In this document: positions 5,647 to 59,458 of the stretch, piece by piece
How positions within the stretch are numbered: the first letter of the stretch is position 1
Layout: the number at the start of each line of letters is the position of its first letter
Source: Candidatus Lustribacter sp.
GTDB lineage: Bacteria > Vulcanimicrobiota > Vulcanimicrobiia > Vulcanimicrobiales > Vulcanimicrobiaceae
Direction of reading: 5' to 3'
Assembly (NCBI GenBank): GCA_965277805.1
Contig: OZ255842.1
Location: 2,048,001-2,112,000 of the forward strand
DNA: 64,000 nucleotides
Translations under genes and position numbers: made by a program
The notes under the pieces: model-generated
Seen by the model: only the letters and a program-made list of their open reading frames with translations
Told to the model about the DNA's origin: nothing
Database searches by the model: none

Positions 5647-6645
5647 TCAAGAACCCCTGGCCGCGGCCGGGAGCTTCAACATCCGCTCGGCATTGCGGTG
5701 GGCGATATCTTCTCTTTCTGATTCGCCGACGGGTAGCGTATCGAGAAAGTCGCGCGCCGCGCGATTGGTCGCGAATGGGTAGTCGACCGAGAAGAGAAGC
5801 CGATCCGTTCCGAACGTGAGCAAGGCCCCCATGAACGGCGGCAGGGTAAAGAAGCCGCTGGTCGTGACCGCGACCTGATCTAGAATCGTCTCGCCTACCG
5901 TGCGTTGCAAACCGGTATTGACGTGCGCAAACGCCTCATCGCTGCGCGCGAGCATGATTTGCAAACCTTCACCCATGTGGCCGATAATGAGCCGCAACTT
6001 TGGATGACGATCGAGCGCGCCGGAAAGCACCAGGCGCAAGACGTGCACCGCGGTATCAGCGTGCCATCCCCAGGCGGCGTTCGCGAACATGTACGACACT
6101 GCCGGATCGAAGCCGTCATAGTATCCGCGCCGCACGCTTGCCGGCGGAACTCCCGGATGCAGATAGAGCGCCACGCCGAGGGCTTCTGCGCGCTCCAGCA
6201 CGGGATCGAACATCGGGTGATCGAGAAATTTTTCGTCGGTGTGGCCGCTGATCATGGCGCCGCAAAAACCGTATTGCTGCACCGTGCGCTCGAGTTCGCC
6301 GGCCGCTGCTTCCGGCGCCGTCAACGGCAGATGTGCGAATGCCGCAAAGCGGTCTGGGTGCCGCTGCACCCTGGCAGCCAATTCATCGTTGTAACGGCGG
6401 GCAAAAGCGGGACCGGCGTCCGCCGGCAATAAGTCCGCTCCGGCACCAATGACGGAAAGAACTTGGACGTCGATGCCCGCCTCATCCATCAAACGAAGCC
6501 GCTTCTCATCCACCTCATCGAGATCGTCCGTGCGCGATTCGGGACCCAGAGCGGGGGCCATGCCGCGCCGCAGCTTCAGCCCCGGATCGATCTCGCTCGC
6601 AAAGCGCCGAAAAGAAACGTGCTCCTCGAGTGCGATAATGCGCAC
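5647..6645 (-). CDS. Amidohydrolase_2 family, aromatic acid decarboxylase-like
   Basis: IALEEH, YLHPG, GHMGE, FSVDYPF motifs (LigW/gamma-resorcylate decarboxylase-like). Confidence 0.88.
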   Translation of the reverse strand: MRIIALEEHVSFRRFASEIDPGLKLRRGMAPALGPESRTDDLDEVDEKRLRLMDEAGIDVQVLSVIGAGADLLPADAGPAFARRYNDELAARVQRHPDRFAAFAHLPLTAPEAAAGELERTVQQYGFCGAMISGHTDEKFLDHPMFDPVLERAEALGVALYLHPGVPPASVRRGYYDGFDPAVSYMFANAAWGWHADTAVHVLRLVLSGALDRHPKLRLIIGHMGEGLQIMLARSDEAFAHVNTGLQRTVGETILDQVAVTTSGFFTLPPFMGALLTFGTDRLLFSVDYPFATNRAARDFLDTLPVGESEREDIAHRNAERMLKLPAAARGS

Positions 6646-6688
6646 GGCGTTAACCCCTCAGTCCAAACGATACGTGATGTGAGAAAAA

Positions 6689-8290
6689 TTACGACTTGAT
6701 GAGATCGGCTGCCTTTTCAGCCACCATGTAGACGGCTGCGTTAATGTGCGCCGAGACGAGATCGGGAAAGACCGAGGCATCGACCACCCGCAATCCCTCG
6801 ATGCCGCGCACGCGCAGTTGCGGATCGAGCACGCTGTCTTCGCCGCTGCCCATCCGGCACGTGCCGGCGGCATGACTCACGCCGGTCGCGGTGCGGCGCA
6901 AGTGCTGATCGATATCTTCATCGCTCGTAACGCCGGCCCCGGGATCGAGTTCGTCACCGCGAAACGCATCGAGTTGCGTCGATTCGCCGATCGCGCGCGC
7001 CATGCGTAAACCCTCTCGCAGCTTCGCGATATCGGCCGGTGCGGAGAAATAATTAAAGTGAATGATTGCCGGGTCGGCGGGGTTTGCCGAGCGCAAGCGC
7101 ACCGTTCCGCGGCTTTCGGGGTGCAGCAGGACGGGATCGATGCCCCACGAGTCGGTATACGCCTTCTGAGCCACGGGCCAATAGGGTCCGACGACGGGCG
7201 GTGAACTGCGGAGCATGAACTCCAGATCGGGCACTTCGAGTTCCGGACTCGATTTGATGTACGCTTGCGTTTCGAGCGGCAGTTCCGTCGCCGGTCCGGT
7301 TCCAAACAGCAGCGCTTGCAGCATCGCAAGGCCCGCCCGGTCATAGCGCATGAGTTTGTTGAAGCTGCTACGCGGCCCGCGCCGCTTCCAGAGCACGAGC
7401 GCTCGTACGTGATCTTGAAGGTTGTTGCCGACCGGCAGCGCCGCGACAACGGGAATACCGAGTTCACGCAAATGCTCGGCCGGACCGATCCCTGAGTGCA
7501 TCAGTAACGCGGGCGAACTGAGCGCGCCGCCGCTCAGCACCACCTCGCGTTCGGCGCGCACGGTTTCGACGCCGCCTGCGCGAGCATACTCAACGCCGGC
7601 CGCGCGGGTGCCGTCCAGCAATATTCGGCGGGCCGTGGCACCGGTAACGACGGTCAAGTTATGTCGATTCATCGCGGGCAGCAGGTAGGCACGCGCAGCC
7701 GAGTCGCGCCGGCCGTTGTGCAAGTTGAACTGCGTGCGGCCGAAGCCGACGCTCTGGGCGTTATAGTCGCCGGTCAACGGATAGCCGCACGCTACGGCAG
7801 CCCGATCGACGGCGGTCGTGAGCGGATCGTTCGGCTTCGCCGCAACGACGTGCACCGGACCCGTTCCGCCGCGTAACGTTGAAGCGCCGCCTTCCCACGT
7901 CTCGATTCGACGGAAGTACGGCAACACGTCGTTCCACGACCATCCGCCGGCGCCGTTGCGCGCCCAACGATCGAAATCACCTGCGCTGCCCCGTGTGAAG
8001 GCCGTCATGTTTATCGAAGAGCCGCCGCCGAGCACTTTTCCGCGCAAGGCTCGCATCGGGCGGTTTGCCATGCCCGCTTCAGGAACCGAATTCTGGCCCC
8101 ACTCGAACATCCGCTTCATTTGCAGTTTGCCCATGCCGAGCGGAATGCGGATGTAGGGATGTCCATCGGCCCCGCCGGCCTCGAGCAAGAGGACGCGGGT
8201 AGCGGGATCTTCGCTCAGGCGGCCGGCTAAAACACAGCCGGCAGATCCCCCGCCGACGATGACGTAATCGTACGTCCGTGCGGCCGTCAC
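6689..8290 (-). CDS. GMC oxidoreductase (choline dehydrogenase-like)
   Basis: YDYVIVGGGSAGC, RGKVLGGGSSIN, NLQDH, HAAGTCRMG; GTG start overlaps the upstream TGA. Confidence 0.93.
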   Translation of the reverse strand: MTAARTYDYVIVGGGSAGCVLAGRLSEDPATRVLLLEAGGADGHPYIRIPLGMGKLQMKRMFEWGQNSVPEAGMANRPMRALRGKVLGGGSSINMTAFTRGSAGDFDRWARNGAGGWSWNDVLPYFRRIETWEGGASTLRGGTGPVHVVAAKPNDPLTTAVDRAAVACGYPLTGDYNAQSVGFGRTQFNLHNGRRDSAARAYLLPAMNRHNLTVVTGATARRILLDGTRAAGVEYARAGGVETVRAEREVVLSGGALSSPALLMHSGIGPAEHLRELGIPVVAALPVGNNLQDHVRALVLWKRRGPRSSFNKLMRYDRAGLAMLQALLFGTGPATELPLETQAYIKSSPELEVPDLEFMLRSSPPVVGPYWPVAQKAYTDSWGIDPVLLHPESRGTVRLRSANPADPAIIHFNYFSAPADIAKLREGLRMARAIGESTQLDAFRGDELDPGAGVTSDEDIDQHLRRTATGVSHAAGTCRMGSGEDSVLDPQLRVRGIEGLRVVDASVFPDLVSAHINAAVYMVAEKAADLIKS

Positions 8291-44570: not shown

Positions 44571-45590
44571 TTATCCCTTAGAAGCTTCTGCGTACACGCG
44601 TAAGTAGTCGAGCACGACCTCTTTCGTGCGCGTGCGCGCGATACCGCACTCGGTGGAGATGCCGAAGCGTCCGACGTACTGCCGGGCGGCTTGCATGCGA
44701 GCCTTCGTGCCAGAAATGCCGTCGCTCGCGTGAACGAGCCCGAGAAACAATTCGGTCTCGGCCGGTAGGGCGAGATCGCGGAGCGGCGCAAAATAGGCAT
44801 CGTCCGTGCGGCCAGCCGGAACGGGCATGTGGATGTAGCTGATCGGGCGTGGCACCGCGCGCAGCAACAGCCCGGCCATCGACGCGAGCCGTTCGGTATC
44901 GCGCGGTTCGATGAAATGCTTGCCTTTATGATCGCCGTAGCACAAATGAAAGCCGAGACCAACGTCAGTTGGAACCGCCCCGCCGAGTCTTCCGAATGCT
45001 GCCGTTAGGCGATCTTCCAAATCGGGCGTCGCCGGCATGCGTGCCCAACCGCCGTCCCACATCAGCATCTCCATGCACACATCCCACTGAATCAACAGAT
45101 CCTCGTGCGGAATGGCCGCGCAGATCGTCTCGACTTCGCGTAGCATTGCGCGTTCGTATGCCGGCAAGATCACCGGCACCGCTTCACGCGCACAGTAGAC
45201 GACGACCACCGCCGTGGGCGTCGGCAGCGACACTTGAAAGCGGATCGACGGCGCTATGAGGCCTGCCGAGCGGGCTTTGAGAAAATCGACGTACGAGGTG
45301 CGCGCTTCGCGCGCGTACCCGAGTTCACCGAACCGGACGTCTTCGGGCGCGACATCCGGCGCAAGCGAAACGGCAGGGAACGCGCTTACCTGTTCGACCG
45401 GCGCGTCGTTCCTCAAGTACGGGTTTGAGGCGAGAACGGGATATTGCCAGAGGATCCAATGCCGCCGGCCACCCGGTTCGCCGTCCGGGATACTGCGCAA
45501 GTTCGAGCCGAGCATCGAGCCGATCGTCGCGAAGACGTCGTCGACCGTATCCAAGCCCACGCTGCCGACGAAGTGCACCGGATACGCCAT
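44571..45590 (-). CDS. MetE catalytic-domain-like (UROD/MetE fold) Zn protein
   Basis: HFVGSVGL, IPDGEPGGR, FQVSLPTP, IQWDVC, HLCYGD and TECG candidate Zn ligands; AAGGAG SD. Confidence 0.75.
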   Translation of the reverse strand: MAYPVHFVGSVGLDTVDDVFATIGSMLGSNLRSIPDGEPGGRRHWILWQYPVLASNPYLRNDAPVEQVSAFPAVSLAPDVAPEDVRFGELGYAREARTSYVDFLKARSAGLIAPSIRFQVSLPTPTAVVVVYCAREAVPVILPAYERAMLREVETICAAIPHEDLLIQWDVCMEMLMWDGGWARMPATPDLEDRLTAAFGRLGGAVPTDVGLGFHLCYGDHKGKHFIEPRDTERLASMAGLLLRAVPRPISYIHMPVPAGRTDDAYFAPLRDLALPAETELFLGLVHASDGISGTKARMQAARQYVGRFGISTECGIARTRTKEVVLDYLRVYAEASKG

Positions 45591-45600
45591 GTTGTACTCC

Positions 45601-46809
45601 TTAATCCGTGCCGGTAATCGGCAGCAGGCCTTCGGGTCGAACGAACGACCGCAGCGGACGCCCTTCCGCCAGGGCCTTGAGCTCCGTGCTCCACAGCTTA
45701 CGCATCGCGATGATAGCGACGTCGGAACGTCCGAGGTGCTCGACGCCTTTGCGCCGGTCAGCGATGCGCCCCTGACCGGTTTGACAGACGTCGTCTTGCG
45801 CCATCGCAACATGGTGACAGAGCTGCGCCATGTCGTCGTAGCCGATGTCGCCGCGCAACACGGCCTGAGCTGCGACATGCGCCTCTTCCTCCGCGTTCGC
45901 AAACTGTTTCCAGCGCTCGGCGTATGCCGGATCGACCGTATCGCCATGAAGATGAACATTAATGAGACGCAATTCGAGGGTGCTTTCGTCGTCGATCGGC
46001 ACGCGATAGGCTAGGAAATCTTGCCAGGCAACCTCCGCCCGGTTCACTTTCTCCTCACCAGGCTTTTGAATATTGTCGGGATGGACAGTGAAGAGGCCGA
46101 TATTCGGCATGCCGAAAAGCACCTCGCGTTTGTGGCCATGGCGCGTGGCGATGCATTTCATGCCCCACGGGGTTTCCTCGGCCGCGATCTCGGGCAGCTG
46201 ATCGAAGTAGACTTTGGTGAACACCGATGTCCGGTGCGTGAACGCGAGATGGCCCTCGTCCATGAAGTTTTCCACGCACTGAAAGAAATTGCAAGCGCGC
46301 ACGCTCATGAGCGGCATGACGAGCTTTCCCCGCTCCCATTCGGGATACCGCGGAAACTCGGGCGGGTCGCCGCCGCCGAAGTACGCATAGATCAAACCGA
46401 GGTAATCGCGCGCGGGATAGCCGCCGATCTTGACGCGCTGCGCGTAGGTGCTGTCGGGCCCCTCGAGCGGCTGCTCGACGCATTGACCGTTCGCTTCGAA
46501 TTTCCAGCCATGGTACGGACATCGAATGCAGTCGCCTTCCACCCAGCCGGCGTTGAGTTGCGTTCCACGATGCGCGCAGGCTTGGTCGACACAGTGAATG
46601 TCGCCCGACTCGCCGCGGTAGAGCGCGTAGTTCTCACCCATGATGCGCAACGGACGCGCGCGCCCGGGCGCTACGCTCTCACTCAAAGCCACCGGATGCC
46701 AGAACGTGCGCATGTAGCGTCCCGCGATCGTACCGGGGCCGGTGTGGGCGAAATCGACGCCCTCGCCGGCGTCATTTACGGAGGCAGTTCCGGAGAGAGT
46801 GGTCGTCAT
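45601..46809 (-). CDS. Rieske oxygenase alpha subunit, phthalate 4,5-dioxygenase/LigX type
   Basis: TGPGT..GRYMRTFWHP, CAHR...CPYHGW, ENFMDEGHLAFTH, HLGRSD. Confidence 0.9.
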   Translation of the reverse strand: MTTTLSGTASVNDAGEGVDFAHTGPGTIAGRYMRTFWHPVALSESVAPGRARPLRIMGENYALYRGESGDIHCVDQACAHRGTQLNAGWVEGDCIRCPYHGWKFEANGQCVEQPLEGPDSTYAQRVKIGGYPARDYLGLIYAYFGGGDPPEFPRYPEWERGKLVMPLMSVRACNFFQCVENFMDEGHLAFTHRTSVFTKVYFDQLPEIAAEETPWGMKCIATRHGHKREVLFGMPNIGLFTVHPDNIQKPGEEKVNRAEVAWQDFLAYRVPIDDESTLELRLINVHLHGDTVDPAYAERWKQFANAEEEAHVAAQAVLRGDIGYDDMAQLCHHVAMAQDDVCQTGQGRIADRRKGVEHLGRSDVAIIAMRKLWSTELKALAEGRPLRSFVRPEGLLPITGTD

Positions 46810-47810
46810 GAATACTCCTTACTTCGCGATTGAGCCAACGCGGCGCGTGCGATCTCTTCGTCTTCTTCGGCCGAGCGCGCTCCGGCGATCCCGAGCGCTC
46901 CCGCGACGCAACCAATTGCGTCAATGGTCGGCAGACCACCGGCAACGGCTAGAAAGGGAAAGCGAGCGAGACGCCCATACCCGGCTGCGTCCGCCGTCCA
47001 TGGACCTTCCGCGCCGCTGGGCGCTTGCAGGTTCACCGCTGTTGCCGCTTTGGCTTCTGCCAGATCCACCGTGATCGGCGCGGCGGAATCCATCCGGTCG
47101 AGCTGCACCAGATCGCCGTTACGGTCCGCGACCGCAGCACTGATGCGAACGCCTCGGCGCTGCGCTTCCGAAAACGCGGCGTCGACGACGGCCAGTGCCC
47201 AGGTCAGACGCTGCTGCTCGCGCGCCGGCGGCGGAGCGCTCAGACCCGTTCCGGAAGGCAGTGGATCGTACCGATTACCGTACGCCTTGCGCCAGCGCTC
47301 GAGATCGTCGCCGTGCTGTGGCGCATAATGATCCAGGCCGATCGCGTAGGAGATGATGAGGTCGATTGCATTCGCGGGCCGGCCTTCGACCAGAAACTTC
47401 TCCGGATCGACGCCGGGGGAACTGACCTCGGGCGGGATATCCGCTGCGGACGACATCGCTCCCACGTGCGCACCGTTGCGCGTGATCGGCATCGCGCCCG
47501 GTCCGGGGAAGCAGCGGTCGCGCAAGATGTCTTGATAGGCGGCGAAAACGCTCGGCGGCCGGCCGTAGATCCGTGCGGCGAAGCGGGCCGATGTTTCGCG
47601 GTTGGCCGCCGCCTCGTACGCCTTCGCGCGCGAGATGCCCATGCTGATCGATCCGGCGCCATCCATCCGCGACGCCGAAATGACGATGCCGCCCTCGTTG
47701 ACCACGACGAATGCGCCGCGCTGTCCGACGTCCTCGGCCTTGTCGACGGCACGCCGGAGCAGTTCACGCGCGTCGGCGAGCGAGAGCAGTGGAGCTTCGA
47801 ACCCCGTCAT
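46806..47810 (-). CDS. Tandem GlcG/HbpS (heme-binding, DUF336) domain protein
   Basis: Two copies of RMD.A.....A.AKA..A plus GG.P....G...GA.G..G; ATGA coupling on both sides. Confidence 0.82.
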   Translation of the reverse strand: MTGFEAPLLSLADARELLRRAVDKAEDVGQRGAFVVVNEGGIVISASRMDGAGSISMGISRAKAYEAAANRETSARFAARIYGRPPSVFAAYQDILRDRCFPGPGAMPITRNGAHVGAMSSAADIPPEVSSPGVDPEKFLVEGRPANAIDLIISYAIGLDHYAPQHGDDLERWRKAYGNRYDPLPSGTGLSAPPPAREQQRLTWALAVVDAAFSEAQRRGVRISAAVADRNGDLVQLDRMDSAAPITVDLAEAKAATAVNLQAPSGAEGPWTADAAGYGRLARFPFLAVAGGLPTIDAIGCVAGALGIAGARSAEEDEEIARAALAQSRSKEYS

Positions 47811-48412
47811 ACAAACGAACACGAGTCTTGGAATTCCAACCGAGGTAGCCGTCCGAACAACATATCCGGGTTACCGAATCCGACCGAACACAAGAAGTTC
47901 GAGCGATACGACGTGCCGGCCAAGAATGCTCGGTCGACGGCCTCGTGGTCGAATCCCGAGAGCGGCCCGCAATCGAGCCCCAGCGCACGCGCAGCGACGA
48001 TGAAATATGCACCCTGCAGGGTGGAATTGCGAAATGCCGTCGCTTCCGCGTACCCAGTGTCGTCCGCGTAATGGCCGCGCATGTCTTTGTGTGGAAAGAG
48101 CCGCGGCAGATGGTCGAAGAATCGCTCGTCGTAGGCGACGATCGCCGTTACAGGGGCGGACAGCACTTTCGGCTTGTTACCGGGGCTGACAGCCTCGGCC
48201 AGTTGCGCCTTCGCTTGAGCACTGCGCACAAAGATGAAGCGCGCCGGCTGCGAGTTCGTACTCGTGGGTCCGAGCTGGGCCAACCCGATCACCGCTCGGA
48301 GCAGCGCCTCGTCGACCTCCTTCGGCAACCAGCCGTTGTGGCTGCGCGCGGCCCGGAAGATCAAATCGAGACCCTGGTCGTCCAGGGCCCGACGATCGCA
48401 TTCGATATCCAT
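47807..48412 (-). CDS. RutE/HadB-type nitroreductase-family flavoprotein
   Basis: ARSHNGW, GPTSTNSQPARF, RNSTLQGAY, GLDCGPLSGFD, RLPRL. Confidence 0.9.
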   Translation of the reverse strand: MDIECDRRALDDQGLDLIFRAARSHNGWLPKEVDEALLRAVIGLAQLGPTSTNSQPARFIFVRSAQAKAQLAEAVSPGNKPKVLSAPVTAIVAYDERFFDHLPRLFPHKDMRGHYADDTGYAEATAFRNSTLQGAYFIVAARALGLDCGPLSGFDHEAVDRAFLAGTSYRSNFLCSVGFGNPDMLFGRLPRLEFQDSCSFV

Positions 48413-48436
48413 TAGCGCCTTCGCAGGTTCCTTTGT

Positions 48437-48471
48437 TTGAAGAATTTGTCTTTCAAGAATGTGTGTTTGAA
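48437..48471. promoter_or_regulatory. Probable MarR operator array
   Basis: TTGAA (48437) / TTCAA (48452) / TTGAA (48467) at exact 15-bp spacing in the divergent intergenic region. Confidence 0.55.
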
Positions 48472-48525
48472 GGTACTATGCATCTCGCGAGCCGAAACGT
48501 CAACCCTTCTCTAGGGGGTTATGCA

Positions 48526-49110
48526 GTGAAACCGCGGGACCACATCGACCTTGTGCGTAGGGCGGCGGGCATGCCGTCGTCCGACACGACGACGGTCGAA
48601 ATTACCAGCCGCCTTTTCCGGTTGTGCGCGCACTACGATCAACTCGTGTCGCCGCTCTACGCACGCCGCGGGCTGACGCGCGTCGAGCTGGATCTGCTTT
48701 GGGCGCTCGAACGCGCAGGCGATACGCCGCTGACGCCGACCAAGCTGGCGGCGCGGCAAATGTGCGCCTCGGGCACCCTCAGCAATCGCCTCGAAAAATT
48801 GGAGCGGCTGGGCCTGCTCACGCGTCAGGCGGATCCATCCGACCGGCGCGGCGTCCTGCTTGAGATCACCGAGCACGGCCGCACGATCGTCAACGAACTC
48901 AACGCGGCGCGCGAACGTATCGATGCACTTCTAATCCCCGGCCTGACCGTCGCGCAACGGCGCGCATTGGTGGACCTGCTGCGGACATCGCTCATTGCGG
49001 CCGAACAGATCGCGCAGCTGGAAACGGCGAGCGAGACGCCACCGTCCTCCGATGAAGAATCATCTGCACCGCAGCCAGCGCCGCTGCGCCGGACGCGTGC
49101 GGCCCGCTAA
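48526..49110 (+). CDS. MarR-family regulator
   Basis: LTPTKLA...SGTLSNRLEKLERLGLLTR..DPSDRRGVLLEITEHG; AGGGGG SD before GTG. Confidence 0.9.
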   Translation: MKPRDHIDLVRRAAGMPSSDTTTVEITSRLFRLCAHYDQLVSPLYARRGLTRVELDLLWALERAGDTPLTPTKLAARQMCASGTLSNRLEKLERLGLLTRQADPSDRRGVLLEITEHGRTIVNELNAARERIDALLIPGLTVAQRRALVDLLRTSLIAAEQIAQLETASETPPSSDEESSAPQPAPLRRTRAAR

Positions 49111-49143
49111 CATTTCTGCAAACCGCTGTAAGGAAAGGCCCTG

Positions 49144-49527
49144 ATGCAGGTTACCAAAGACGATGTCATGCAAGCCAGCAAAGGCATGCTACAGAAGCAA
49201 TTCTACGTCGTGTTCAGTACGCCGACGAATGGGATTGGTCCCGTGATGGAAAACCTCGAGGCACACCTCGCGCACCAATGCAAGATCGAGGCGGACGGAA
49301 TCATGGTGGCGGCCGGCCCGTACTGGACCGATGACGAGAAGCAATGGGAAGGCGAGGGCATGTTCGTCATTCGTGCGCGATCCCTCGCGCATGCGAAGGA
49401 ACTTGCGGCGAGCGACCCGATGCACAAATGCGGAGCGCGGTCGTTCGTCGTCCGGCCATGGATGGTGAATGAAGGCGGCCTCACTATCCGGCTCACGTTC
49501 TCGGACGGGAAATTCGTTCTTGAGTAA
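49144..49527 (+). CDS. YciI-family protein (copy 1)
   Basis: AHLAHQ, AAGP, GMFVIRA, DPMH...RPW. Confidence 0.85.
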   Translation: MQVTKDDVMQASKGMLQKQFYVVFSTPTNGIGPVMENLEAHLAHQCKIEADGIMVAAGPYWTDDEKQWEGEGMFVIRARSLAHAKELAASDPMHKCGARSFVVRPWMVNEGGLTIRLTFSDGKFVLE

Positions 49528-49573
49528 CGACGTTCCTGAACGGTCTTCTCGCAGCGCCTCGGAGTTCTACTGA

Positions 49574-50764
49574 ATGCCGTCACTAGCGAAGCTCTCGGAG
49601 TCCACTCGCAACTCCGTTTTGACCCTGCCGGTCGACCTCCACGAGTCGAGCCCGTTCACGCGGCCCAAGAAGCCACTCAGCCAATCGCGGGTCGCGATCG
49701 TCACGACGGCCGGATTACACCGCCGCGACGACCGGCCGTTTACCGGCGGGGATCCGACCTTCCGAGCCATACCCTCAGGAACGCCGGCGTCAGAGATCGT
49801 GCAAAGCCACACCAGCATCGGGTTCGACCGGACCGCCGTGCTCGAGGACATCAACGTCGTTTTTCCGATCGAGCGGTTGCGCGAGATGCTTTCGGCGGGT
49901 CGCATCGGGGAGTTGGCGCCGACCTTCTATTCGTTCATGGGCGCGCAGCGTGACTGGTCACCGATCAGGGAGCGAACGGGACCCGAAGTTGCGAACCTGT
50001 TGGTCGGCGATGGTGTCGACGTCGTCTTACTTACACCAACTTGACCACTTTGCACGAACACGGTCAGTGTTCTCTCACGGGTCTTGGAAGAAAACGGGCT
50101 CACGACGGTCGCTTTGAGTCTGATCCGCGAACACACGGAAAAAGTGAAGCCTCCGCGCGCCGTGTACGTTCCCTTTCCGTTGGGTCTGCCGGTCGGTCAT
50201 CCCGGAAACGTTTCCGAACAGGAGGCCGTCTTGGACTTGGCATTTTCCACTCTCGATGCCGCCAGCGGCCCCGTGCTGCTCGACTATCGCGATGACTCGG
50301 CAGCCGAGGAGGCCGGCTCGCCGCTTCAGGCCTCCGACGTCGATGCGGACGAGCAGGCTCGGACGGCTGACTTCGCTACGGAAGTGACGTTGATGCGGCG
50401 CTATTGGGAGCAGCACGTCGCGGCGACCGGCCGCACCGGCGTCGGCTTATCGAACGTCCCGCCGCAGCGGTTCCGCGGCGTCGTGCGGTTTCTCGAAGCT
50501 CTTCTCACCGATCAAACGGCCGACTCGGACGAACGGCCGGCGGAGGTGCCGAGACCGCTGTTCATCCGGACGTGCCTCGAGGACCTACGCGTGATGTACA
50601 GTGAAGCGCGCTTGCAAACGCATCCACATGAGTCAAGTCAAGACCGGCAACGTTGGTTGCTCGGCTCGACCGCGCTCGGGCTCATGCTGCGCAGCCTGCG
50701 CGATACCTTCGACGCCTCGACCGATCCGCAGTTCAAAGCGCTCGCCTTCGGTATCGCGCGCTGA
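49574..50764 (+). CDS. PrdB/GrdB-family selenoprotein (396 aa, Sec157, UxxC) with a C-terminal extension
   Basis: Two same-frame ORFs joined by TGA 50042-50044: VLLTPT-U-PLCTNTVSVLSRVLEENGLTT; family motifs on both sides (KPLSQSRVAIVTTAG, DINVVFPIERL; KPPRAVYVPFPLG); the in-window paralog has Cys here. Confidence 0.85.
50045..50072 (+). promoter_or_regulatory. Candidate bacterial SECIS element
   Basis: Stem GAACAC/GTGTTC (50056-61/50067-72) with GGTCA loop starting 17 nt after the UGA. Confidence 0.65.
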
Positions 50765-50768
50765 TTCG

Positions 50769-51152
50769 ATGGAAGAACAGGAGCGGTTCTCATCCTTACA
50801 CACATGGGCACGGCGCGCGGGAGACGTCGTGACGGTCGGTATCAGCGCCTACGCCGAACATCAATTGGGTGAGCTGCAATACGTCGGTCTACCGCGCGTC
50901 GGCTCTGCCGTTGTGAAAGACCAGTGCTTCGGTGAGGCTGAATCGACGAAGACCGTTTCCGACCTCTACGCTCCGTGCAGCGGCACCGTCGTTGCGGTCA
51001 ACTCCGAACTCATTGCCGATCCTGCGCTGGTCAATCGCGATCCGTATGGCGCGGGGTGGATAATACTGGTTGAGCCGTCGCAGCCCGGGGAATTCCACGA
51101 ATTGCTCGACCAGCCGGCGTACGACGCGTTCGTCGCCACGCAGGAGCATTGA
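50769..51152 (+). CDS. gcvH: Glycine-cleavage H-protein-like lipoyl carrier
   Basis: HTWAR, VGISAYA..QLG, lipoyl-Lys motif ESTKTVSDLYAP, VNRDPYGAGW. Confidence 0.9.
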   Translation: MEEQERFSSLHTWARRAGDVVTVGISAYAEHQLGELQYVGLPRVGSAVVKDQCFGEAESTKTVSDLYAPCSGTVVAVNSELIADPALVNRDPYGAGWIILVEPSQPGEFHELLDQPAYDAFVATQEH

Positions 51153-51206
51153 GGCATCCAAGCTATGCTTTCAACCTAAGATGATAAGCGAGGGGGCTTG
51201 TACCAC

Positions 51207-51400
51207 GTGCTAAGATCCACATTCGTCTCTTCCAGTCTGAGCCTAACGGCAGCGGCGGAATTGCCGCTGCCGGTAGGCGCCCAATCTGTCGCGTTCGCTC
51301 CAGATGCCACCCGAAGCCGTCGGGCAGAGGTGGTTACGACAATGAACCTTGCGCGCCCGGGCGTTTCGCAGGCGTGGATCCCCTTGCCGTCAGTGAGCGC
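51207..51400 (+). pseudogene. Possible N-terminal remnant of a secreted (transglutaminase-like) protein
   Basis: Degenerate signal peptide, then EVVTT...SQAWIPLPSV, then no continuation. Confidence 0.3.
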
Positions 51401-51544
51401 CCTAGCCGTTCTTGATGTATCCTCAAGCCGTGAACGCGGGCATCGCCTGCGACTGCCTCGATCCAAAGGCTGTCGCTTATTCGATCACGGTAACGGCCTA
51501 GTTTCTCTCTTCGAAGGCGACGCGACGTTCCCGAGGTACTCAAC

Positions 51545-52516
51545 ATGTCCGCTGCAATCCATTCGCTCGATCACTTTAGCTTCGCCGTCCCTGACGTAGC
51601 CGCCGCGGCTGCGTTCTACGAACGCTTCGGCCTCGATGTCCGCTCGGAAGGTACGGGTTTCACGCTGCGCGCGAGCGGCAGCGATCACGTTTGGGGTCGC
51701 ATTTACGAAGGCCCGCGAAAAGCCATCGGTTACCTCTCGTTCGGCGCGTACGAGCACGATATGCCGCAACTGCGCAAGCAAGTCGCCGGATGCGGAGTGG
51801 CGTTACTGCCGGCTCCGAAACGTGCCGTCGACGATGGCGGGGTGTGGTTCGAGGATCCGGACGGGACACTAATAGAGATTCGCGTCGGTCCGAAGGTCTC
51901 GCCTGACGTAAAAGCTGCGCTGAGCGCGACGTTTGCCCCGCCCGATGTCGCTGGTGCGCCCATGCGCTCCGACGCCAAGACGGTGCGGCCCGACCGTCTT
52001 TCGCACGTGCTCGTGTTCACGAGCGATGTCTCGCGCGCGATCGACTTTTATCGCGAGACCGTTGGCATGCAGCTCTCCGATCGGGCTCGGGACGGCATCG
52101 GGTTCATGCACGGCGCACACGGCAGCGACCATCACCTCGTCGCATTCGCGAAATCTGACGCTCGCGGATTTCATCATTGCAGTTGGAACGTAGCTTCGGT
52201 GAGCGATGTCGGCCTAGGTGCGATGCAAATGGCCGATGCGGGATACACTCGCGGGTGGGGAATGGGGCGGCACGTACTCGGGTCAAACTATTTTGACTAC
52301 ATCCGCGACCCGTGGGGAAGCTACTCCGAATATTCCTACGATATCGATTTCGTCACTCCGGGAGCGGTTGCGAAAGGCACGTGGAAAGCGACCGACGCAT
52401 CGCCCGAAAATGGCTTCTACTTGTGGGGGCCGTTGCCACCTGACGATTTCGCCTTTAATTACGAGTCGCCGTCGGCCGAATTACAACGGGACCTCGTCGC
52501 AAGCGAACCGCGGTAA
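51545..52516 (+). CDS. Two-domain VOC extradiol dioxygenase-like protein
   Basis: C-domain ligands LSHVL, HHCSW, GRHVLGSNYFDYIRDPWGSYSEY; GAGG SD. Confidence 0.88.
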   Translation: MSAAIHSLDHFSFAVPDVAAAAAFYERFGLDVRSEGTGFTLRASGSDHVWGRIYEGPRKAIGYLSFGAYEHDMPQLRKQVAGCGVALLPAPKRAVDDGGVWFEDPDGTLIEIRVGPKVSPDVKAALSATFAPPDVAGAPMRSDAKTVRPDRLSHVLVFTSDVSRAIDFYRETVGMQLSDRARDGIGFMHGAHGSDHHLVAFAKSDARGFHHCSWNVASVSDVGLGAMQMADAGYTRGWGMGRHVLGSNYFDYIRDPWGSYSEYSYDIDFVTPGAVAKGTWKATDASPENGFYLWGPLPPDDFAFNYESPSAELQRDLVASEPR

Positions 52517-54634: not shown

Positions 54635-55492
54635 CTAATCGCCTTCTGACACTTCCCCGCGACGATCGCGAAGCCGCACTAGTCGCTGAAGCGCGCTGCT
54701 GCTTTCCTCATCAACGGGCGTCTGCAGGAACACCATGACCCCCGGAAGTGCGGGCGGCTCCAGCGTCATGGACCTCACCGCGATCGGTCCGGCGGCCGTT
54801 TCGAAAGTGATCGGCGTCGCCGGACCACGGCCCACGATCTTTTCCGACCACGCGCGCGTGAAGTCGGGTGAATCGGCGAGCGCGTCTAGCAGCTCGTCGA
54901 TACGCGCATCCGCACCGTGACGCGCGTACAATGAGCGAAAGATGGCCACCGGACCGAGCGACATCTCGTCCCAGCTCCGCACGATATGGCGGAGCGCCGG
55001 ATCCTTGAACATGCGCCAGATGTGATTGTTGGCTTTCCAATCGGTTGCGTCGCTGAACTCGTAGAGGGCCGCCGTGCGCCGATTCCAGGCAAGGTGATCC
55101 ATGCGGGCGTTGACCGCGAACGCGCTGCCGGTGAACGCGTGCAGCATCGCCTGGACATCGGCCGGAACCGCGGTGACCAGCTCGCCCCACGGCACGATCT
55201 GCCGTTCGGCCAGGCCGAAGACATAGCCCGACTCTTCCGGCGAAAGGCGCAGCACGCGAGAAATCCGCGTAAGGACTTCGGACGAGGGGCGTACTGGGCG
55301 CCCTTGCTCGAGCCAGGTGTACCAAACGACGCCAATGTGCGCCAGGCTGGCCACCTCCTCGCGACGCAAGCCACGCGCGATCCGGCGCGCACCTCGCTCT
55401 AAGCCGGCAGCCTCTGGCGCGATCGCCTGGCGCCGCGAGCGCAAGAACATGCCGAGCTCTTTGCGACGTGCGGCCGGGTCATCAGAATTCAT
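54635..55492 (-). CDS. XRE-family (HTH_31 + MmyB ligand-binding) regulator
   Basis: RRKELGMFLRSRR, GLRREEVASLA.IGVVWYTWLEQGR...PS, AWN. Confidence 0.92.
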   Translation of the reverse strand: MNSDDPAARRKELGMFLRSRRQAIAPEAAGLERGARRIARGLRREEVASLAHIGVVWYTWLEQGRPVRPSSEVLTRISRVLRLSPEESGYVFGLAERQIVPWGELVTAVPADVQAMLHAFTGSAFAVNARMDHLAWNRRTAALYEFSDATDWKANNHIWRMFKDPALRHIVRSWDEMSLGPVAIFRSLYARHGADARIDELLDALADSPDFTRAWSEKIVGRGPATPITFETAAGPIAVRSMTLEPPALPGVMVFLQTPVDEESSSALQRLVRLRDRRGEVSEGD

Positions 55493-55506
55493 GACAGCTC
55501 TTTGAG

Positions 55507-55529
55507 GAGTACTCGCAGTACTAGTACTG
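55507..55529. promoter_or_regulatory. Probable operator of the XRE/MmyB regulator
   Basis: Perfect palindrome CAGTACTAGTACTG (55516-55529) plus GAGTACTC (55507-55514) between divergent genes. Confidence 0.6.
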
Positions 55530-55599
55530 TTTCTTGCCTTTGTGGCGGCCGCACTCCTGTGCTACAAAGCCTCGGACGGTACTTGCGGGGGATGCGCTC

Positions 55600-56607
55600 A
55601 TGACTGATTCCGGCACATTTTCGCTTGCCAAAGCCCGCGCATTGCTTTCGCGCGCCGTAGCAAAATGCGAGGCCTTTGGGCAATCCGGCACCTTCGTCGT
55701 CGTCGACGCCTCGGGCGCTCCGGTGAGCGTGGCGCGTATGGACGGCTGCGCCCCCTCGGCGCTGCCGCTGGTTCGTGCGAAGGCGTTCGCCACCGCCGCG
55801 AACGGCGAGCCGAGCGCGCTCTTCGCCGCACGCATGGAGAAGTTCGGTCCCCACACGTTTGCGAGCTATCAGGCCGTTCTGCGCGACCAGCCGTTTCCGG
55901 GCGCCGGCGGTGTACCGGTGCGGGAGAACGGGAGGATCGTCGGAGCGATTGCGACCGGCCTGCGCATCGGGCCGTTCGTCAAGTTGCCCGGCATCTCGCC
56001 GTCGCAACTGATCGCCGACGGCAAGCCGGGCAATCTCGAGGATACGATCATCAGCTACGCGCTCGGCGTACCGTACAATCCGCAGCACGGCGATGACGCT
56101 GCGCGCTGGACCGAAGCCTATGGCGCGCCGCCGGACCCGGCGGAAAAAGGAACGGCCATGGACCCGGTTCCGGAAGCGAGCGCGCAACCCGAACTCGCGC
56201 GCGCGCGCGCAATTGCCGATCGCGTGATCGCGCGCGCCACGGAAAAGGGCGCGCGCGTGGCCGTTGCGGTTGTCGATGCGGCCGGCGATGCCGTCACGCT
56301 CGATCGCATGGACGGCGCGCCGCCGATGGGGGTCGACGTCGCCGCAGCCACCGCGACCGCCGCCGTCAATTTTGGCATGGCGTCGGGGGCGATCGCAGCC
56401 GACCGCCACTATTCGAGCGTTCTCGACAGCGTGCTCACAACCGTCCCATACCGGATGCTGACGTTGCCCGGCGGATGTCCGATTCGCAGCGGAACGGCGG
56501 TGCTCGCTGCCATCGGTGTGTATTGTCATGATCTCGACCTCGCCGCCGAGCTTGCGCAGAGTGCGGCGGATTGGGTCTTACCGCAATTCGAAGGAAGTGG
56601 TCAATGA
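55600..56607 (+). CDS. Tandem GlcG/HbpS domain protein (paralog of 46806..47810)
   Basis: RMDGC..AKAFATA and RMDGAPP; shared IISYA.G..Y.PQHGDD..RW..AYG linker. Confidence 0.82.
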   Translation: MTDSGTFSLAKARALLSRAVAKCEAFGQSGTFVVVDASGAPVSVARMDGCAPSALPLVRAKAFATAANGEPSALFAARMEKFGPHTFASYQAVLRDQPFPGAGGVPVRENGRIVGAIATGLRIGPFVKLPGISPSQLIADGKPGNLEDTIISYALGVPYNPQHGDDAARWTEAYGAPPDPAEKGTAMDPVPEASAQPELARARAIADRVIARATEKGARVAVAVVDAAGDAVTLDRMDGAPPMGVDVAAATATAAVNFGMASGAIAADRHYSSVLDSVLTTVPYRMLTLPGGCPIRSGTAVLAAIGVYCHDLDLAAELAQSAADWVLPQFEGSGQ

Positions 56608-57809
56608 TAGAACAGGATCGCATCGACATCGACATCGCTCCGCTCACCGATCCTGGCACGGTCGACTATGTCCACACCGGCCCCGGCACCTTGGCCGGCA
56701 CCTACTTACGGCGCTTTTGGCACCCCGTCTATTGCAGCCGTAACCTCGAGCCCGGCTTCGCTAAGCCGCTGACGATCATGAGCCAGAAATTGGCGCTGTA
56801 CCGCAGCCAGGAAGGCCAGGTCCACTGCGTCGACAACCGCTGTGCGCATCGCGGCGCGATGCTCAGCACGGGCTGGGTCGAGGGCGACGTCATCCGCTGC
56901 CCCTATCATGGCTGGGCGTACGGGGCCGATGGCAGGTGCGTGGAGCAGCCGATGGAACGAGCGACATTCGCCAAGCATATTCGCATCGGCGGCTACCCGA
57001 CGCAAGAATATCTCGGCTTCATCTGGCTCTATCTCGGCAACGGCGAACCGCCCCCGTTTATACGCTATCCCGAATGGGAGAATGCGCCCTTCGTTTCCGC
57101 TCAGATCGACACGCGGCCATGCAATTGGTTTCAGAACATCGAGAACTATCAAGACGAAGCTCACGTTTGGTTCACGCACAAGCGCTCCGCGCTCGAAGGC
57201 CTCGATCTGAACCATCTGCCGCAGCTCTCGTGTGAGAAAACGCCCTGGGGCTTGCGTATGATCGCAAAGAAACAGGACGGCAACGACCGCATCGTGCAGT
57301 TCGGTATGCCCAACATCTGCATGTTCGCCGTGCATCCGGACAACATTAAACGCCAGGGCGAAGAACGCAACGCCGACGAGACAGCGTGGCAGATGTTCCT
57401 CGACTACCGGGTGCCGGTGGACGATTTCTCGCATCTGCAAGTGCACTGTATCGCGACGTTCATGAACGGGACGCCCAGCGAAGAGTACAAGAAGCGCTGG
57501 AAAGACTTCGCGAACGCCGAAGCCGAGGCCCACGAGGTCGCGCAGAAAGTGCTGCGCGGCGAACTCCAGTACGATAGGATCGCCGAAATATGCCACCACG
57601 TGCCACTTGCGCAAGACGAAGTTGTGCAAGTGGGCCAGGGCGTCATTGCGGATCGCCGGCGCGGCATCGAAAATCTGGGCTCGACGGACGTCGGCGTCGT
57701 CGCGATCCGGCGACTGTATACGCAGGAGCTCACGGCGCTGGCCGAAGGCCGGCCGCTCGGGAATTTCGAGCGGCCGGAGGGACTGTTGCCCAAAGGCGGC
57801 GGCGACTAA
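56604..57809 (+). CDS. Rieske oxygenase alpha subunit (paralog of 45601..46809)
   Basis: HTGPGTLAG.YLRRFWHP, CAHR...CPYHGW, ENYQDEAHVWFTH; shared FGMPNI..F.VHPDNI and CHHV..AQD. Confidence 0.9.
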   Translation: MIEQDRIDIDIAPLTDPGTVDYVHTGPGTLAGTYLRRFWHPVYCSRNLEPGFAKPLTIMSQKLALYRSQEGQVHCVDNRCAHRGAMLSTGWVEGDVIRCPYHGWAYGADGRCVEQPMERATFAKHIRIGGYPTQEYLGFIWLYLGNGEPPPFIRYPEWENAPFVSAQIDTRPCNWFQNIENYQDEAHVWFTHKRSALEGLDLNHLPQLSCEKTPWGLRMIAKKQDGNDRIVQFGMPNICMFAVHPDNIKRQGEERNADETAWQMFLDYRVPVDDFSHLQVHCIATFMNGTPSEEYKKRWKDFANAEAEAHEVAQKVLRGELQYDRIAEICHHVPLAQDEVVQVGQGVIADRRRGIENLGSTDVGVVAIRRLYTQELTALAEGRPLGNFERPEGLLPKGGGD

Positions 57810-58192
57810 TGCCGGTTTCCAAAGAGGACATCCTTGAAGCCGGTAAAGGCATGCTGCAAAAGCAGTATTACGTCGTCTTCAGCACGCCGACGAACGGTAT
57901 CGGTCCCGTGATGGAAAATCTCGAGGCGCACCTCGCGCATCAATGTAAGATCGAGGCCGACGGCATTATGGTGGCGGCCGGACCGCACTGGACGGATGAC
58001 GAGACGCAGTGGGAGGGCGACGGGATGTTCGTCATCCGCGCACGGGACCTCGTGCACGCAAAGGAGCTTGCGGCGAGCGATCCGATGCACAAATGCGGAG
58101 CGCGGTCGTTCAAAGTCCGCCCGTGGCTGGTGTGCGAAGGCGGCTTTACCATACGGATCACGTTTTCGGACGGCAAATTCGCACTCGAGTAA
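57809..58192 (+). CDS. YciI-family protein (copy 2)
   Basis: 108/127 aa identical to 49144..49527 by manual alignment; TAATG coupling. Confidence 0.88.
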   Translation: MPVSKEDILEAGKGMLQKQYYVVFSTPTNGIGPVMENLEAHLAHQCKIEADGIMVAAGPHWTDDETQWEGDGMFVIRARDLVHAKELAASDPMHKCGARSFKVRPWLVCEGGFTIRITFSDGKFALE

Positions 58193-58223
58193 CGTCGCGC
58201 TCATCGGCGGAAAGTGAAGGCTC

Positions 58224-58577
58224 ATGCTCTACCTCAGAATGTGTTTTGACAGTCCCGGTAAGGAACAGCTCCGCGATGCCACGCGGTCGGAGCACCGCGC
58301 CTACCTCGTCCCATTTCTGGCCCCCGGCGGGGACGTCCACATCGTTCAGGCCGGTCCCATGTGCGGCAGCGATGAGAGCGATCAGAACGTGGGCAGCTTT
58401 TTCGTCGTCGAAGCCACGTCGATAAAGGCGGTCGAGGCCTTTCACGCCGGCGATCCGTTCACGCAAAAAGGCGTGTTCGGAAACGCGACGGTCGTGCGGT
58501 GGGATCGGCACATCGACAGTAGCAGCGAATCGCACGCGACGTTCGCCGCACAAAACGCCCGGCCGGCTGTCGGATAA
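58224..58577 (+). CDS. YciI-family protein, canonical type
   Basis: D.PG..QLR..TR.EHRAYL, AGP, GSFFVVEA, DPFT..GVF. Confidence 0.85.
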   Translation: MLYLRMCFDSPGKEQLRDATRSEHRAYLVPFLAPGGDVHIVQAGPMCGSDESDQNVGSFFVVEATSIKAVEAFHAGDPFTQKGVFGNATVVRWDRHIDSSSESHATFAAQNARPAVG

Positions 58578-58579
58578 CG

Positions 58580-59458
58580 ATGCCGTACAGCTTCTCCCGC
58601 TTTCTGGCCGAACTGGGGCGATCGATTCCGATGCCCGAATTCGATCCGCCCACGCTCGTGCCGTTGCGCAAGCCCATCGCCGAGTCGACAATCGGGATGT
58701 TCGTCAGCTGCGGCGCGCAACTGCCCGAAGACCCGCCGCTGCTCGAGACGGAAGACATCACGTTCCGGTTGTTGCCACGCGACGTCCCGACCGATCGACT
58801 AGTCATTTCGCATCAAACGCTGGTACGGAAGTGGGCGGTAGAAGACCTGAACGTCGCATACCCGATCGACCGCATGAAGGAGCTGGAACGTGAGGGAACG
58901 TTCAAGCGGCTCGCGCACACAAACGTCTCAATGGTCGGTTCGATCGAGCGCTATACCGAATTGATGGAACAGACAGTGCCGCGGATGAAGGCCGTCTTTG
59001 ACTCGCAAGGTGTCGACCTCGTCTTGTTGCTGCCGTTCTGCCCCGCATGTCATCGGGCGACGGGCCTCGTCGCTCGGGCGTTGGAGGCCCGCGGGCTGCC
59101 GACCATTAGCACGAGCGTGCTGTGGGAAATGAGCGCTGCCGTCAAGCCGCCGCGCACGTGCTTCCTAGATTTTCCGCTAGGTTGCCCGGCCGGCAAGCCG
59201 CACGAAGTAGCGCAGCAGCGCGACATTCTCCGTCAAACGCTGCAACTCGCACCGGAGTTCGACGCCGACAGCTGGGCGATGAAGTCGCTGCCGTTTCAAT
59301 GGGATGCCGACGGAAGTCGCGACTGGGAGCGCGCGACAGAAGACCTCTACCGAAACGGTGGAATCAAGATTACCGATCGGCACATGGCGGCGCACGCAAA
59401 CGTCGGCGAGTCGTTACTTGGCAACGAGCGCGCCTTCGCAGTCAAATGTAACTGTTAA
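58580..59458 (+). CDS. PrdB/GrdB-family Cys homolog (CxxC) with a C-terminal CxC
   Basis: KPIAESTIG, EDLNVAYPIDRM, VLLLPFCPACHRATGLVARALEARGLPT, KPPR...DFPLG; ends KCNC-stop. Confidence 0.85.
   Translation: MPYSFSRFLAELGRSIPMPEFDPPTLVPLRKPIAESTIGMFVSCGAQLPEDPPLLETEDITFRLLPRDVPTDRLVISHQTLVRKWAVEDLNVAYPIDRMKELEREGTFKRLAHTNVSMVGSIERYTELMEQTVPRMKAVFDSQGVDLVLLLPFCPACHRATGLVARALEARGLPTISTSVLWEMSAAVKPPRTCFLDFPLGCPAGKPHEVAQQRDILRQTLQLAPEFDADSWAMKSLPFQWDADGSRDWERATEDLYRNGGIKITDRHMAAHANVGESLLGNERAFAVKCNC

Follow-up and report, generated by a model that had tools for sequence, protein, structure and literature searches.

What does a lipoyl carrier protein do when its gene lies directly behind that of a selenoprotein? 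The question is raised by 64,000 nucleotides of Candidatus Lustribacter sp. (assembly GCA_965277805.1, contig OZ255842.1, positions 2,048,001 to 2,112,000). We call this whole stretch the window and count coordinates from its first letter unless a genome position is given. It encodes a protein like GcvH, the H protein of glycine cleavage, next to a selenoprotein like PrdB of proline reductase. A sequence-only reading of the window had proposed that the H-like protein is an orphan carrier dedicated to the selenoenzyme. We argue that this is probably correct: its sequence and setting point to a specialised carrier for the PrdB-like selenoprotein and not to a part of glycine cleavage. The proposal gains from the protein's place in a clade of its own (support 99/93) and from the same pairing in a second phylum. 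The elements in question are:

49574..50764, plus strand, PrdB-like selenoprotein of 396 aa with the motif U157-P-L-C160, translated with TGA as U
50042..50044, plus strand, in-frame TGA read as selenocysteine U157
50056..50072, plus strand, SECIS-like hairpin (selenocysteine insertion sequence) with a 6-bp stem GAACAC/GUGUUC and loop GGUCA, 11 nt 3' of the UGA
50769..51152, plus strand, GcvH-like lipoyl carrier of the Cys70 subfamily, 127 aa, ATG at 50769 and TGA at 51150-51152
50949..50951, plus strand, codon of the lipoyl-lysine K61 (E58-S59-T60-K61)
50976..50978, plus strand, codon of Cys70, nine residues past K61

The spacing of 4 nt reported earlier is exact. The selenoprotein gene stops with TGA at 50762-50764, then comes ttcg, and the ATG of the GcvH-like gene is at 50769. 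The gene is closely coupled in translation to the selenocysteine (Sec) gene. Its product matches Pfam GCV_H (PF01597) with 119.4 bits against a cut-off of 22.2, and the match covers residues 7-123, the full-length domain. It passes the GcvH equivalog TIGR00527 marginally (116.4 vs 115.85) and NF002270 with 134.1 vs 117. It falls far under the cut-offs of TIGR03077 'not_gcvH' (50.7 vs 144.05) and NF045810 'GcvH_rel_desulf' (31.1 vs 150). The lipoyl-lysine motif ESTKTVSD is indeed intact, spanning residues 58-65 with the lysine at K61; E58, S59 and K61 are invariant across 49 sequences of the subfamily to which the protein belongs.

That subfamily stands apart from canonical GcvH. A word-indexed search with the window's protein returns about 60 relatives at 52-89% identity and then canonical GcvH at 53% or less. 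All of the close relatives come from metagenomes or metagenome-assembled genomes (MAGs), and one is named by NCBI as a 'Candidatus Aquilonibacter' MAG. Around the lipoyl-lysine the subfamily reads FGE-VES-x-KT-xS-x-LYAPC(S/T)G, where canonical GcvH has FGVVESVKA-SD-F-APVSG. Counted over 61 rows of each kind, its signature residues are:

Q37, in 100% of the subfamily and 0% of canonical GcvH
G40, in 98% of the subfamily and 0% of canonical GcvH, which has E/D instead
E56, in 100% of the subfamily and 8% of canonical GcvH
D51, in 90% of the subfamily and 2% of canonical GcvH
Cys70, in 97% of the subfamily and 0% of canonical GcvH, which has V/L/A/T instead

T62 is also among the subfamily's own conserved residues. 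Two members lack Cys70 (P0165 and P0182), and both are on contigs matched to PrdB-like fragments. A careful tree of 81 rows splits 55 subfamily rows from 26 canonical rows with an ultrafast bootstrap (UFBoot) of 99 and an SH-like approximate likelihood ratio (SH-aLRT) of 93; it has about 130 alignment columns and its bootstrap had not fully settled. Among the canonical rows are the GcvH of this genome, five more canonical ones from the same phylum and the second GcvH of genome G406. A quick tree of 121 rows gives the same split with an SH-aLRT of 91. As whole-protein values, the pI is 4.45 for the window's protein, with medians of 4.59 for the subfamily (n=55) and 4.21 for canonical GcvH (n=61). 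Judged by its sequence, then, the window's H protein belongs to a distinct, non-canonical clade with its own signature. No fused PrdB-GcvH forms were found among the matches, which is weak evidence; the one longer match is a 235-aa GcvH. A 521-aa open frame in genome G444 looked like a fusion and was rejected, as it is a canonical GcvH within a spurious long frame.

The genome has another H protein for glycine cleavage. There are two GCV_H matches in this 5.53-Mb single-contig genome. The second, at C1:5219401, lies directly behind a GCV_T gene (300.9 bits) and 3.1 Mb from the window's copy. The only GDC-P match of the genome is at C1:5225163, about 5 kb downstream of this canonical gcvT-gcvH pair. 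Thus a separate gcvTHP set exists at C1:5.219 Mb, and the window's gene is not the only gcvH. The two H proteins are 42% identical over 117 aligned residues. The earlier statement that the window holds no gcvT, gcvP, gcvL or thioredoxin gene is borne out by tblastn and profile searches. Local tblastn finds no gcvT-like sequence in the window, nor in L048, the Actinomycetota locus discussed below. There is no GDC-P match in the window and no Pyr_redox_dim match of the Lpd type, the genome's three being at 0.05, 1.77 and 5.28 Mb. None of the genome's six thioredoxin-family matches falls within 2,048,001-2,112,000. The window lacks a grdA match as well, which says little since the controls gave none either.

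The upstream partner is a genuine Sec gene. Its frame stays open only when the TGA at 50042-50044 is translated as Sec (motif TPTUPLCT). The genome has the machinery for this: tRNA-Sec, SelA (411 bits) and the SelB winged-helix domain. Eight matches span query residues 1-396 and each has one in-frame TGA, as does a ninth, weaker match (G020, residues 10-379). Among 98 homologous loci read with a strict regular expression, the codon of U157 is TGA in 69 and Cys in 2, and 27 do not match the expression. The hairpin has an unremarkable folding energy (z 0.68). Its register is common to most of the 40 Sec-type homologous loci listed, and its stem variants pair on both sides (GAACAC/GTGTTC, TCACAC/GTGTGA, GCACAC/GTGTGC, GCACGC/GCGTGC). 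Such covariation is suggestive of a SECIS, in a stretch that is also coding. Rfam found nothing in the window that reached a gathering score. About 240 nt separate the genome's top thioredoxin match (113 bits) from selA downstream of it, and selB comes next, so C1:4921087-4924590 may be a trx-selA-selB cluster.

Residues 26-224 of the selenoprotein are PrdB-like and match positions 18-215 of the 238 in the TIGR04483 PrdB model. The score of 146.9 bits is below the cut-off of 300, so the equivalog is not reached. Pfam GRDB (PF07355) gives 43 bits against a cut-off of 22, and only with the C-terminal part of the model (210-347). The remaining residues, 225-396, form a helical domain that has no family match in profile scans. 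An AlphaFold2 (AF2) model of a 68%-identical homologue is confidently predicted (pLDDT 94, pTM 0.93). In this model C/U-x-x-C would lie where strand 150-154 ends and helix 160-173 starts, in an alpha/beta domain that the helical domain follows. There is a weak glutaredoxin-like similarity in sequence at TPTCPxC (E 0.056). A Foldseek search of the model against the PDB reaches a TM of 0.28 at best and finds no solved relative. The wide VIA-align search with the same model yields only generic Rossmann-like matches (Z<=8.6, residues 33-246) that barely cover the C-terminal domain, and the ESM Atlas returns only low-recognition helical-repeat matches for the C-terminal 157 residues.

The family is large, with 2376 representative clusters at E<=1e-3 in an exhaustive search. 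Many of its database entries are halves: N-terminal pieces end at 155/156 and C-terminal pieces start at 165-167, the latter named 'hypothetical protein'. The family is systematically mis-annotated because gene callers read the Sec codon as a stop. The classical partners of PrdB and GrdB do not turn up in the genome, which is 95% complete. There are no matches to PrdA/GrdE (PF09338) or to the GRDA family, and neither family gave a match in the control genomes, so both negatives are weak.

The genome holds a second Sec-type paralogue of 396 aa (C1:3856659-3857819), 58% identical to the first. It is found among genes for NAD(P)HX repair, a major facilitator superfamily (MFS) transporter and enolase, a setting that looks like housekeeping. 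It groups with the copies of genus mates and, on that placement, looks like the vertically inherited one. The paired copy of the window looks like an acquired extra beside it. The genome's only BPL_LplA_LipB match (C1:3852444-3852755) is 4 kb from the second paralogue. We set this match aside, since it is on the opposite strand with unrelated genes between and its proximity is probably due to chance.

The sequence-only reading asked whether gcvH-like and prdB-like genes are adjacent elsewhere. They are, so the arrangement is not unique to this genome. In L048, an Actinomycetota MAG, a Cys-type PrdB-like gene (motif TPTCPVCT, 6001-7185) is followed after 24 nt by a GcvH-like gene (7210-7611). 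The L048 carrier bears the subfamily cysteine (...KTSSEVYAPCSG) and is placed at the base of the subfamily clade. Besides this carrier, the L048 genome encodes another GcvH, which has the canonical motif. A tree of 86 PrdB-like proteins places the copies of the window and of L048 in one clade of 16 rows from Eremiobacterota and Actinomycetota (SH-aLRT 95); the other 14 rows have no carrier.

Further pairs can be read from contig sizes. For 13 of 60 subfamily proteins, the longest contig is identical in size and source to that of a PrdB-like C-terminal fragment, and these fragments are 65-86% identical to the window's selenoprotein. The matched contigs measure 1480, 1797, 2653, 2844, 3493, 4973, 11817, 13439, 31099, 53970, 255084, 378558 and 3864772 nt. 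Six of them are shorter than 5 kb, so co-residence there means adjacency or nearly so. Four of the 13 pairs were checked again as clusters of one member. No contig in the lists matches a PrdB-like fragment of less than about 62% identity. As a control, we examined 94 canonical-type GcvH loci. A PrdB-like gene and the PC[ST]G motif are absent from all of them, and gcvT flanks the gene in 53. The claim of conservation stands on two loci seen as DNA plus the indirect contig matches. Close relatives that share the signature and a pairing in another phylum make this more than chance.

The neighbours of the pair may tell us what it is for. The genes around the pair in the window are:

45601..46809, minus strand, Rieske oxygenase, divergent neighbour (Pfam Rieske, 78.6 bits)
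46806..47822, minus strand, double GlcG/HbpS-like protein, divergent neighbour (Pfam HbpS-like, 126.7 bits, 2 stretches)
47807..48412, minus strand, nitroreductase, divergent neighbour (Pfam Nitroreductase, 45.2 bits)
48433..49110, plus strand, MarR-family regulator (Pfam MarR_2 44.6 bits, MarR 43.8 bits)
49144..49527, plus strand, YciI-like protein of 127 aa, from a dimeric alpha/beta-barrel family (Pfam YCII, 33 bits vs a cut-off of 24)
51545..52516, plus strand, two-domain extradiol (VOC-type) ring-cleavage dioxygenase (Pfam Glyoxalase, 84.1 bits, 2 stretches)

A same-strand run of four close-set genes opens with the MarR regulator and continues with the YciI-like, PrdB-like and GcvH-like genes; the gap between the first two is 33 nt. 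The YciI-like protein has its closest PDB sequence match in HI0828 (E 9.5e-4). It contains 'AHLAH' and 'SDPMH', which may correspond to the His-Asp dyad of TftG-type YciI enzymes. The extradiol dioxygenase matches 3b59 (1.1e-16) and BphC (1.6e-10) among PDB sequences. It starts 392 nt downstream of the GcvH-like gene and is probably a separate transcription unit. A scan of 48200-51700 for promoters and terminators picked up a single weak promoter-like site, on the minus strand, and nothing resembling a terminator. Three sequencing runs contain the stretch, all from one sample, and no RNA run is listed. On the minus strand at 44571-45590, flanked by the genes of the Rieske oxygenase and of a periplasmic binding protein, is a 339-aa frame without any Pfam match at E<=0.001.

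The pair of L048 is part of a longer series of genes on one strand: first CoA-transferase A and B, then an MR/MLE cycloisomerase and DUF1330, next the PrdB-like and GcvH-like genes, and finally an intradiol dioxygenase, a dienelactone hydrolase and an iron-containing alcohol dehydrogenase (Fe-ADH). Two LysR regulators are on the opposite strand. Going by its Pfam families, we name this a modified ortho-cleavage cluster of the chlorocatechol/hydroxyquinol type. The same cluster is found in Streptomyces sp. CA-111067 (L068, NZ_CP192103.1:29553-42728) at 70-82% protein identity, with DUF1330 and a natural Cys-type PrdB-like gene. The single GcvH of that genome has the canonical motif. YCII and DUF1330 are both small dimeric alpha/beta-barrel families. 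Of the module's three genes, the first encodes a small protein of the alpha/beta-barrel type, YciI in the window and DUF1330 in Actinomycetota, and the others encode the PrdB-like enzyme and the GcvH-like carrier. Both pairs known at the DNA level lie among genes that hydroxylate and cleave aromatic rings.

The window also contains a paralogous cassette at 54635-59458, which mirrors the genes around the GcvH-like gene and has no H-like carrier:

54635..55492, minus strand, MmyB-like regulator
55534..56607, double GlcG/HbpS-like protein
56571..57809, Rieske oxygenase
57800..58192, YciI-like protein
58580..59458, short Cys-type PrdB-like protein with the motif CPAC, ending in KCNC

Two further short Cys-type PrdB-like copies are found at C1:1.531 and 2.202 Mb, and the one at 2.202 Mb also follows a YciI-like gene. 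Other lineages have small proteins of another kind behind the enzyme. At 12 Dehalococcoidia/SAR202 loci (L062, L077, L079, L091, L100-L102, L107, L109, L111, L113 and L115) the Sec PrdB-like gene has a gene for a protein of 127-141 aa behind it, with a median gap of 40 nt. We read this protein from its sequence as a glyoxalase/VOC-like protein, which may be another lineage-specific partner.

From the sequences and gene order we propose that the carrier is a dedicated partner of the PrdB-like enzyme that uses its lipoyl dithiol to recycle the enzyme's Sec/Cys centre, working with a YciI/DUF1330-type protein in aromatic catabolism. We put the chance that this full statement is right at about even. 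The housekeeping machinery would lipoylate the lysine; that the protein is lipoylated is suggested by the retained E-S-x-K motif and the acidic, GcvH-like pI. A flavoprotein of the Lpd type, for which the genome has three candidates, would reduce the lipoyl group with NADH. The dihydrolipoyl arm, possibly aided by Cys70, would then re-reduce the selenenyl-sulfide U157-C160 after each turnover of the enzyme. Comparable roles are played by dithiothreitol in vitro for proline reductase and by thioredoxin for glycine reductase. The reaction served would most likely be a reductive step on an intermediate derived from an aromatic compound, such as quinone reduction or the reductive removal of a substituent, because the module sits among ring-oxygenase and ring-cleavage genes. 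We co-folded a 68%-identical homologue of the selenoprotein, as a stand-in, with the window's GcvH-like protein; the scores of 0.21 and 0.29 lie below the mark of 0.32 and give no verdict on binding.

Several observations weigh against this proposal, and most of them concern how rare the pairing is. The 13 contig matches imply further adjacent pairs indirectly, the DNA itself not having been seen. Adjacency is seen in L048 and implied by these matches; the carrier is missing from 79 of the 80 PrdB-like loci fetched from genomes of other species. None of the 347 other genomes of the same family has a GcvH-like match at E<=1e-36, and these include all 7 genus mates, whose PrdB-like loci have no GcvH-like gene within +-1500 nt. 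The genus-mate tallies and the adjacency screens include two genomes flagged as unpublished (G015 and G026), on which nothing else here depends. Searches of 400 genomes of the phylum and 300 of L048's order brought up no further subfamily member; in the former the best other match is 52% identical, and in the latter the only other match is a canonical GcvH. A metagenome scan with the GcvH-like protein was dominated by canonical GcvH (best 54% identity) and found a PrdB-like gene at 0 of 80 loci; it did not reach the close relatives as DNA. Even the second Sec paralogue of the same genome has no GcvH-like gene adjoining it. The Streptomyces cluster also lacks the carrier gene, its dioxygenase match starting about 40 nt past the PrdB-like stop, which means that the carrier is an accessory and the enzyme can use another reductant. 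The aromatic context comes from only two independent lineages, and the neighbours of other PrdB-like loci are heterogeneous and lineage-specific (short-chain dehydrogenases/reductases, MFS transporters, thiamine enzymes). Finally, the GcvH-like protein still passes the NCBI equivalog cut-off for GcvH, if barely. Taken together, the pairing is genuine and recurrent, yet rare and limited to a narrow, patchy set of genomes. The single occurrence among 80 loci, the 347 family genomes without one and the carrier-free Streptomyces cluster make the carrier an optional accessory of one clade and not a reductant for the whole family.

One can imagine other roles for the protein. The plainest is that it is an ordinary second GcvH, serving glycine cleavage or a lipoate relay, that came to lie beside the selenoprotein by accident or by hitch-hiking. 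It passes two equivalog thresholds for GcvH, is as acidic as GcvH and keeps all the residues around the lipoyl-lysine. The pair is also missing from all relatives in the family, so the two genes could have arrived together by transfer. However, this does not account for a separate clade at 99/93 or for four positions whose residues are constant in the subfamily and hardly ever occur in canonical GcvH. Nor does an accident explain a pairing that recurs across phyla and in 13 matched contigs, when 0 of 94 canonical loci have a PrdB-like neighbour and 53 have gcvT. Both genomes that bear the pair have kept a canonical copy as well. We consider an ordinary GcvH improbable. Another option makes the protein an analogue of GrdA. 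The Sec of the PrdB-like enzyme would attack a substrate carbon as it does in GrdB and PrdB, and the adduct would pass to the lipoyl arm or to Cys70 and be released reductively. The H-like protein would then carry substrate and not only electrons. GcvH by origin does carry a covalently bound intermediate, the aminomethyl group, and this subfamily has gained an almost invariant extra thiol in Cys70. In glycine reductase, according to the excerpts of one account, the Sec of GrdB hands its adduct to the small carrier GrdA (PMC13188914). That the genome has no match to GrdA or PrdA/GrdE also fits, weakly given the empty controls. Against this, no pyruvoyl subunit to activate an amine substrate turned up in the genome, by the same weak search, and P0165 and P0182 do without the cysteine. 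The carrier-free cluster of Streptomyces fits an exchangeable reductant better than an obligatory carrier of an intermediate. We regard a GrdA-like role as unlikely.

A last scenario turns the relationship around. The dihydrolipoyl carrier would trap electrophilic quinones, and the PrdB-like enzyme would cleave the resulting thioether or mixed disulfide and so restore the carrier. By analogy, bacteria that use glutathione have glutathionyl-hydroquinone lyases. Both DNA-level pairs are set among ring-hydroxylating and ring-cleaving genes. Published passages also describe TftG, of the YciI family, as making a benzoquinone that needs reduction (PMC7641849, PMC3975901), and the breaking of a C-F bond has been proposed for a Sec protein of the GrdB family (PMC10838667). 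This scenario is wholly inferential, however, and the YciI-like protein matches TftG only at the superfamily level, with no TftG in the PDB sequence search at E<=1. We do not expect it to be right. Of the dedicated dithiol partner we keep the even estimate given above.

How new is such a partnership? Our protein resembles canonical GcvH (PF01597, TIGR00527) in fold family, length, E-S-x-K motif and acidic pI. It differs in having no adjoining gcvT or gcvP, in being paired with a PrdB-like gene, in forming a separate clade and in the fixed substitutions Q37, G40 (E/D in canonical GcvH), D51 and Cys70 (V/L/A in canonical GcvH). GcvH-like proteins that work outside glycine cleavage are already known. 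GcvH-L, which goes with SirTM and a macrodomain, is one; no sirtuin or macrodomain is found among the neighbours scanned here, and the partner is a Sec/Cys UxxC protein instead. Another is LbpA, the GcvH-like lipoate-binding protein of sHdr sulfur oxidation (PMC6067878; bioRxiv 10.64898/2026.10.01.755906). Going by the parts of those sources at hand, the likeness is a good one: a GcvH homologue recruited outside glycine cleavage, with its gene beside the redox enzyme it serves and with cysteines specific to the family. The same preprint excerpts define LbpA by a pair of N- and C-terminal cysteines (bioRxiv 10.64898/2026.10.01.755906). Our subfamily has the single internal Cys70 instead; 2 of its 61 sequences have a Cys among the first 12 residues and none of the 61 has one among the last 12. 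Of the basic surface and higher pI that set LbpA apart from GcvH, the higher pI is not found, the whole-protein value here being 4.45. No partners of the LbpA type (sHdr genes, sLpl(AB) ligase) occur among the neighbours scanned with Pfam.

The selenoprotein is likewise familiar in part. It is homologous to nearly the whole of PrdB and shares the UxxC motif of PrdB and GrdB/F/H, enzymes of a type that, in the passages available, depend on a dithiol from outside or on a small carrier protein (PMC13188914). It is unlike them in scoring far under the PrdB cut-off and in having an extra helical domain of 170 residues. It also occurs in a soil-type genome of Eremiobacterota and not in a Stickland fermenter, and the partner proposed for it is a lipoyl protein. 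Excerpts from the marine surveys show that UxxC selenoproteins called 'proline reductase PrdB' have been listed since 2005 among the most abundant selenoprotein families in ocean metagenomes (PMC1088965, PMC2398784). These Sargasso Sea and Global Ocean Sampling proteins share the Pfam family and the UxxC motif with ours, and as far as those excerpts go the family is named after proline reductase, and nothing is said of a partner or context where it stands alone (PMC1088965, PMC2398784). For the chemistry, the comparison is with the YciI-family dehydrochlorinase TftG, whose hydroxybenzoquinone product has to be reduced by a reductase before hydroxyquinol ring cleavage in the parts of the literature seen (PMC3975901, PMC7641849). 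A YciI-family gene is directly upstream of the window's pair, and in L048 and L068 the module has a cycloisomerase on one side and an intradiol dioxygenase, a dienelactone hydrolase and an Fe-ADH on the other. The YciI-like protein itself is unlike TftG in that the resemblance does not go beyond the superfamily. The proposal that a GrdB-like Sec protein cleaves a C-F bond comes, in the excerpt, from transcriptomics (PMC10838667). By analogy, the reductive conversion of a quinone or of a substituted ring becomes plausible in the light of these two precedents; neither bears on this locus. In full-text searches of main texts outside subscription journals, no paper turned up that connects a GcvH-like protein with a standalone PrdB-like protein, names a partner or pathway for the latter or mentions a Cys70 subfamily. 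The lipoyl-carrier partner and the aromatic-catabolism context are new leads.

The locus gives an orphan selenoprotein family a candidate partner, a signature to search with (Cys70) and a metabolic context. The cultured Streptomyces, whose version of the cluster holds a natural Cys-type enzyme, offers a practical way to study what the family does. If the carrier works as we propose, the H-protein scaffold would have been taken into service outside glycine cleavage a third time independently, LbpA and GcvH-L being the earlier cases. A bolder and rather doubtful extension is a lipoate-based thiol system for aromatic catabolism, in which electrons would run from NADH through Lpd and the lipoyl-GcvH-like protein to the PrdB-like Sec/Cys enzyme and on to the product of the YciI/DUF1330-type enzyme. 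There the enzyme might reduce a quinone, reductively dehalogenate or deaminate a substrate, or split an adduct of thiol and quinone. If this is true, a protein-bound dithiol does here what glutathione-dependent enzymes do in the chlorophenol pathways of proteobacteria, and it would be the first physiological role for the abundant environmental 'PrdB' selenoproteins.

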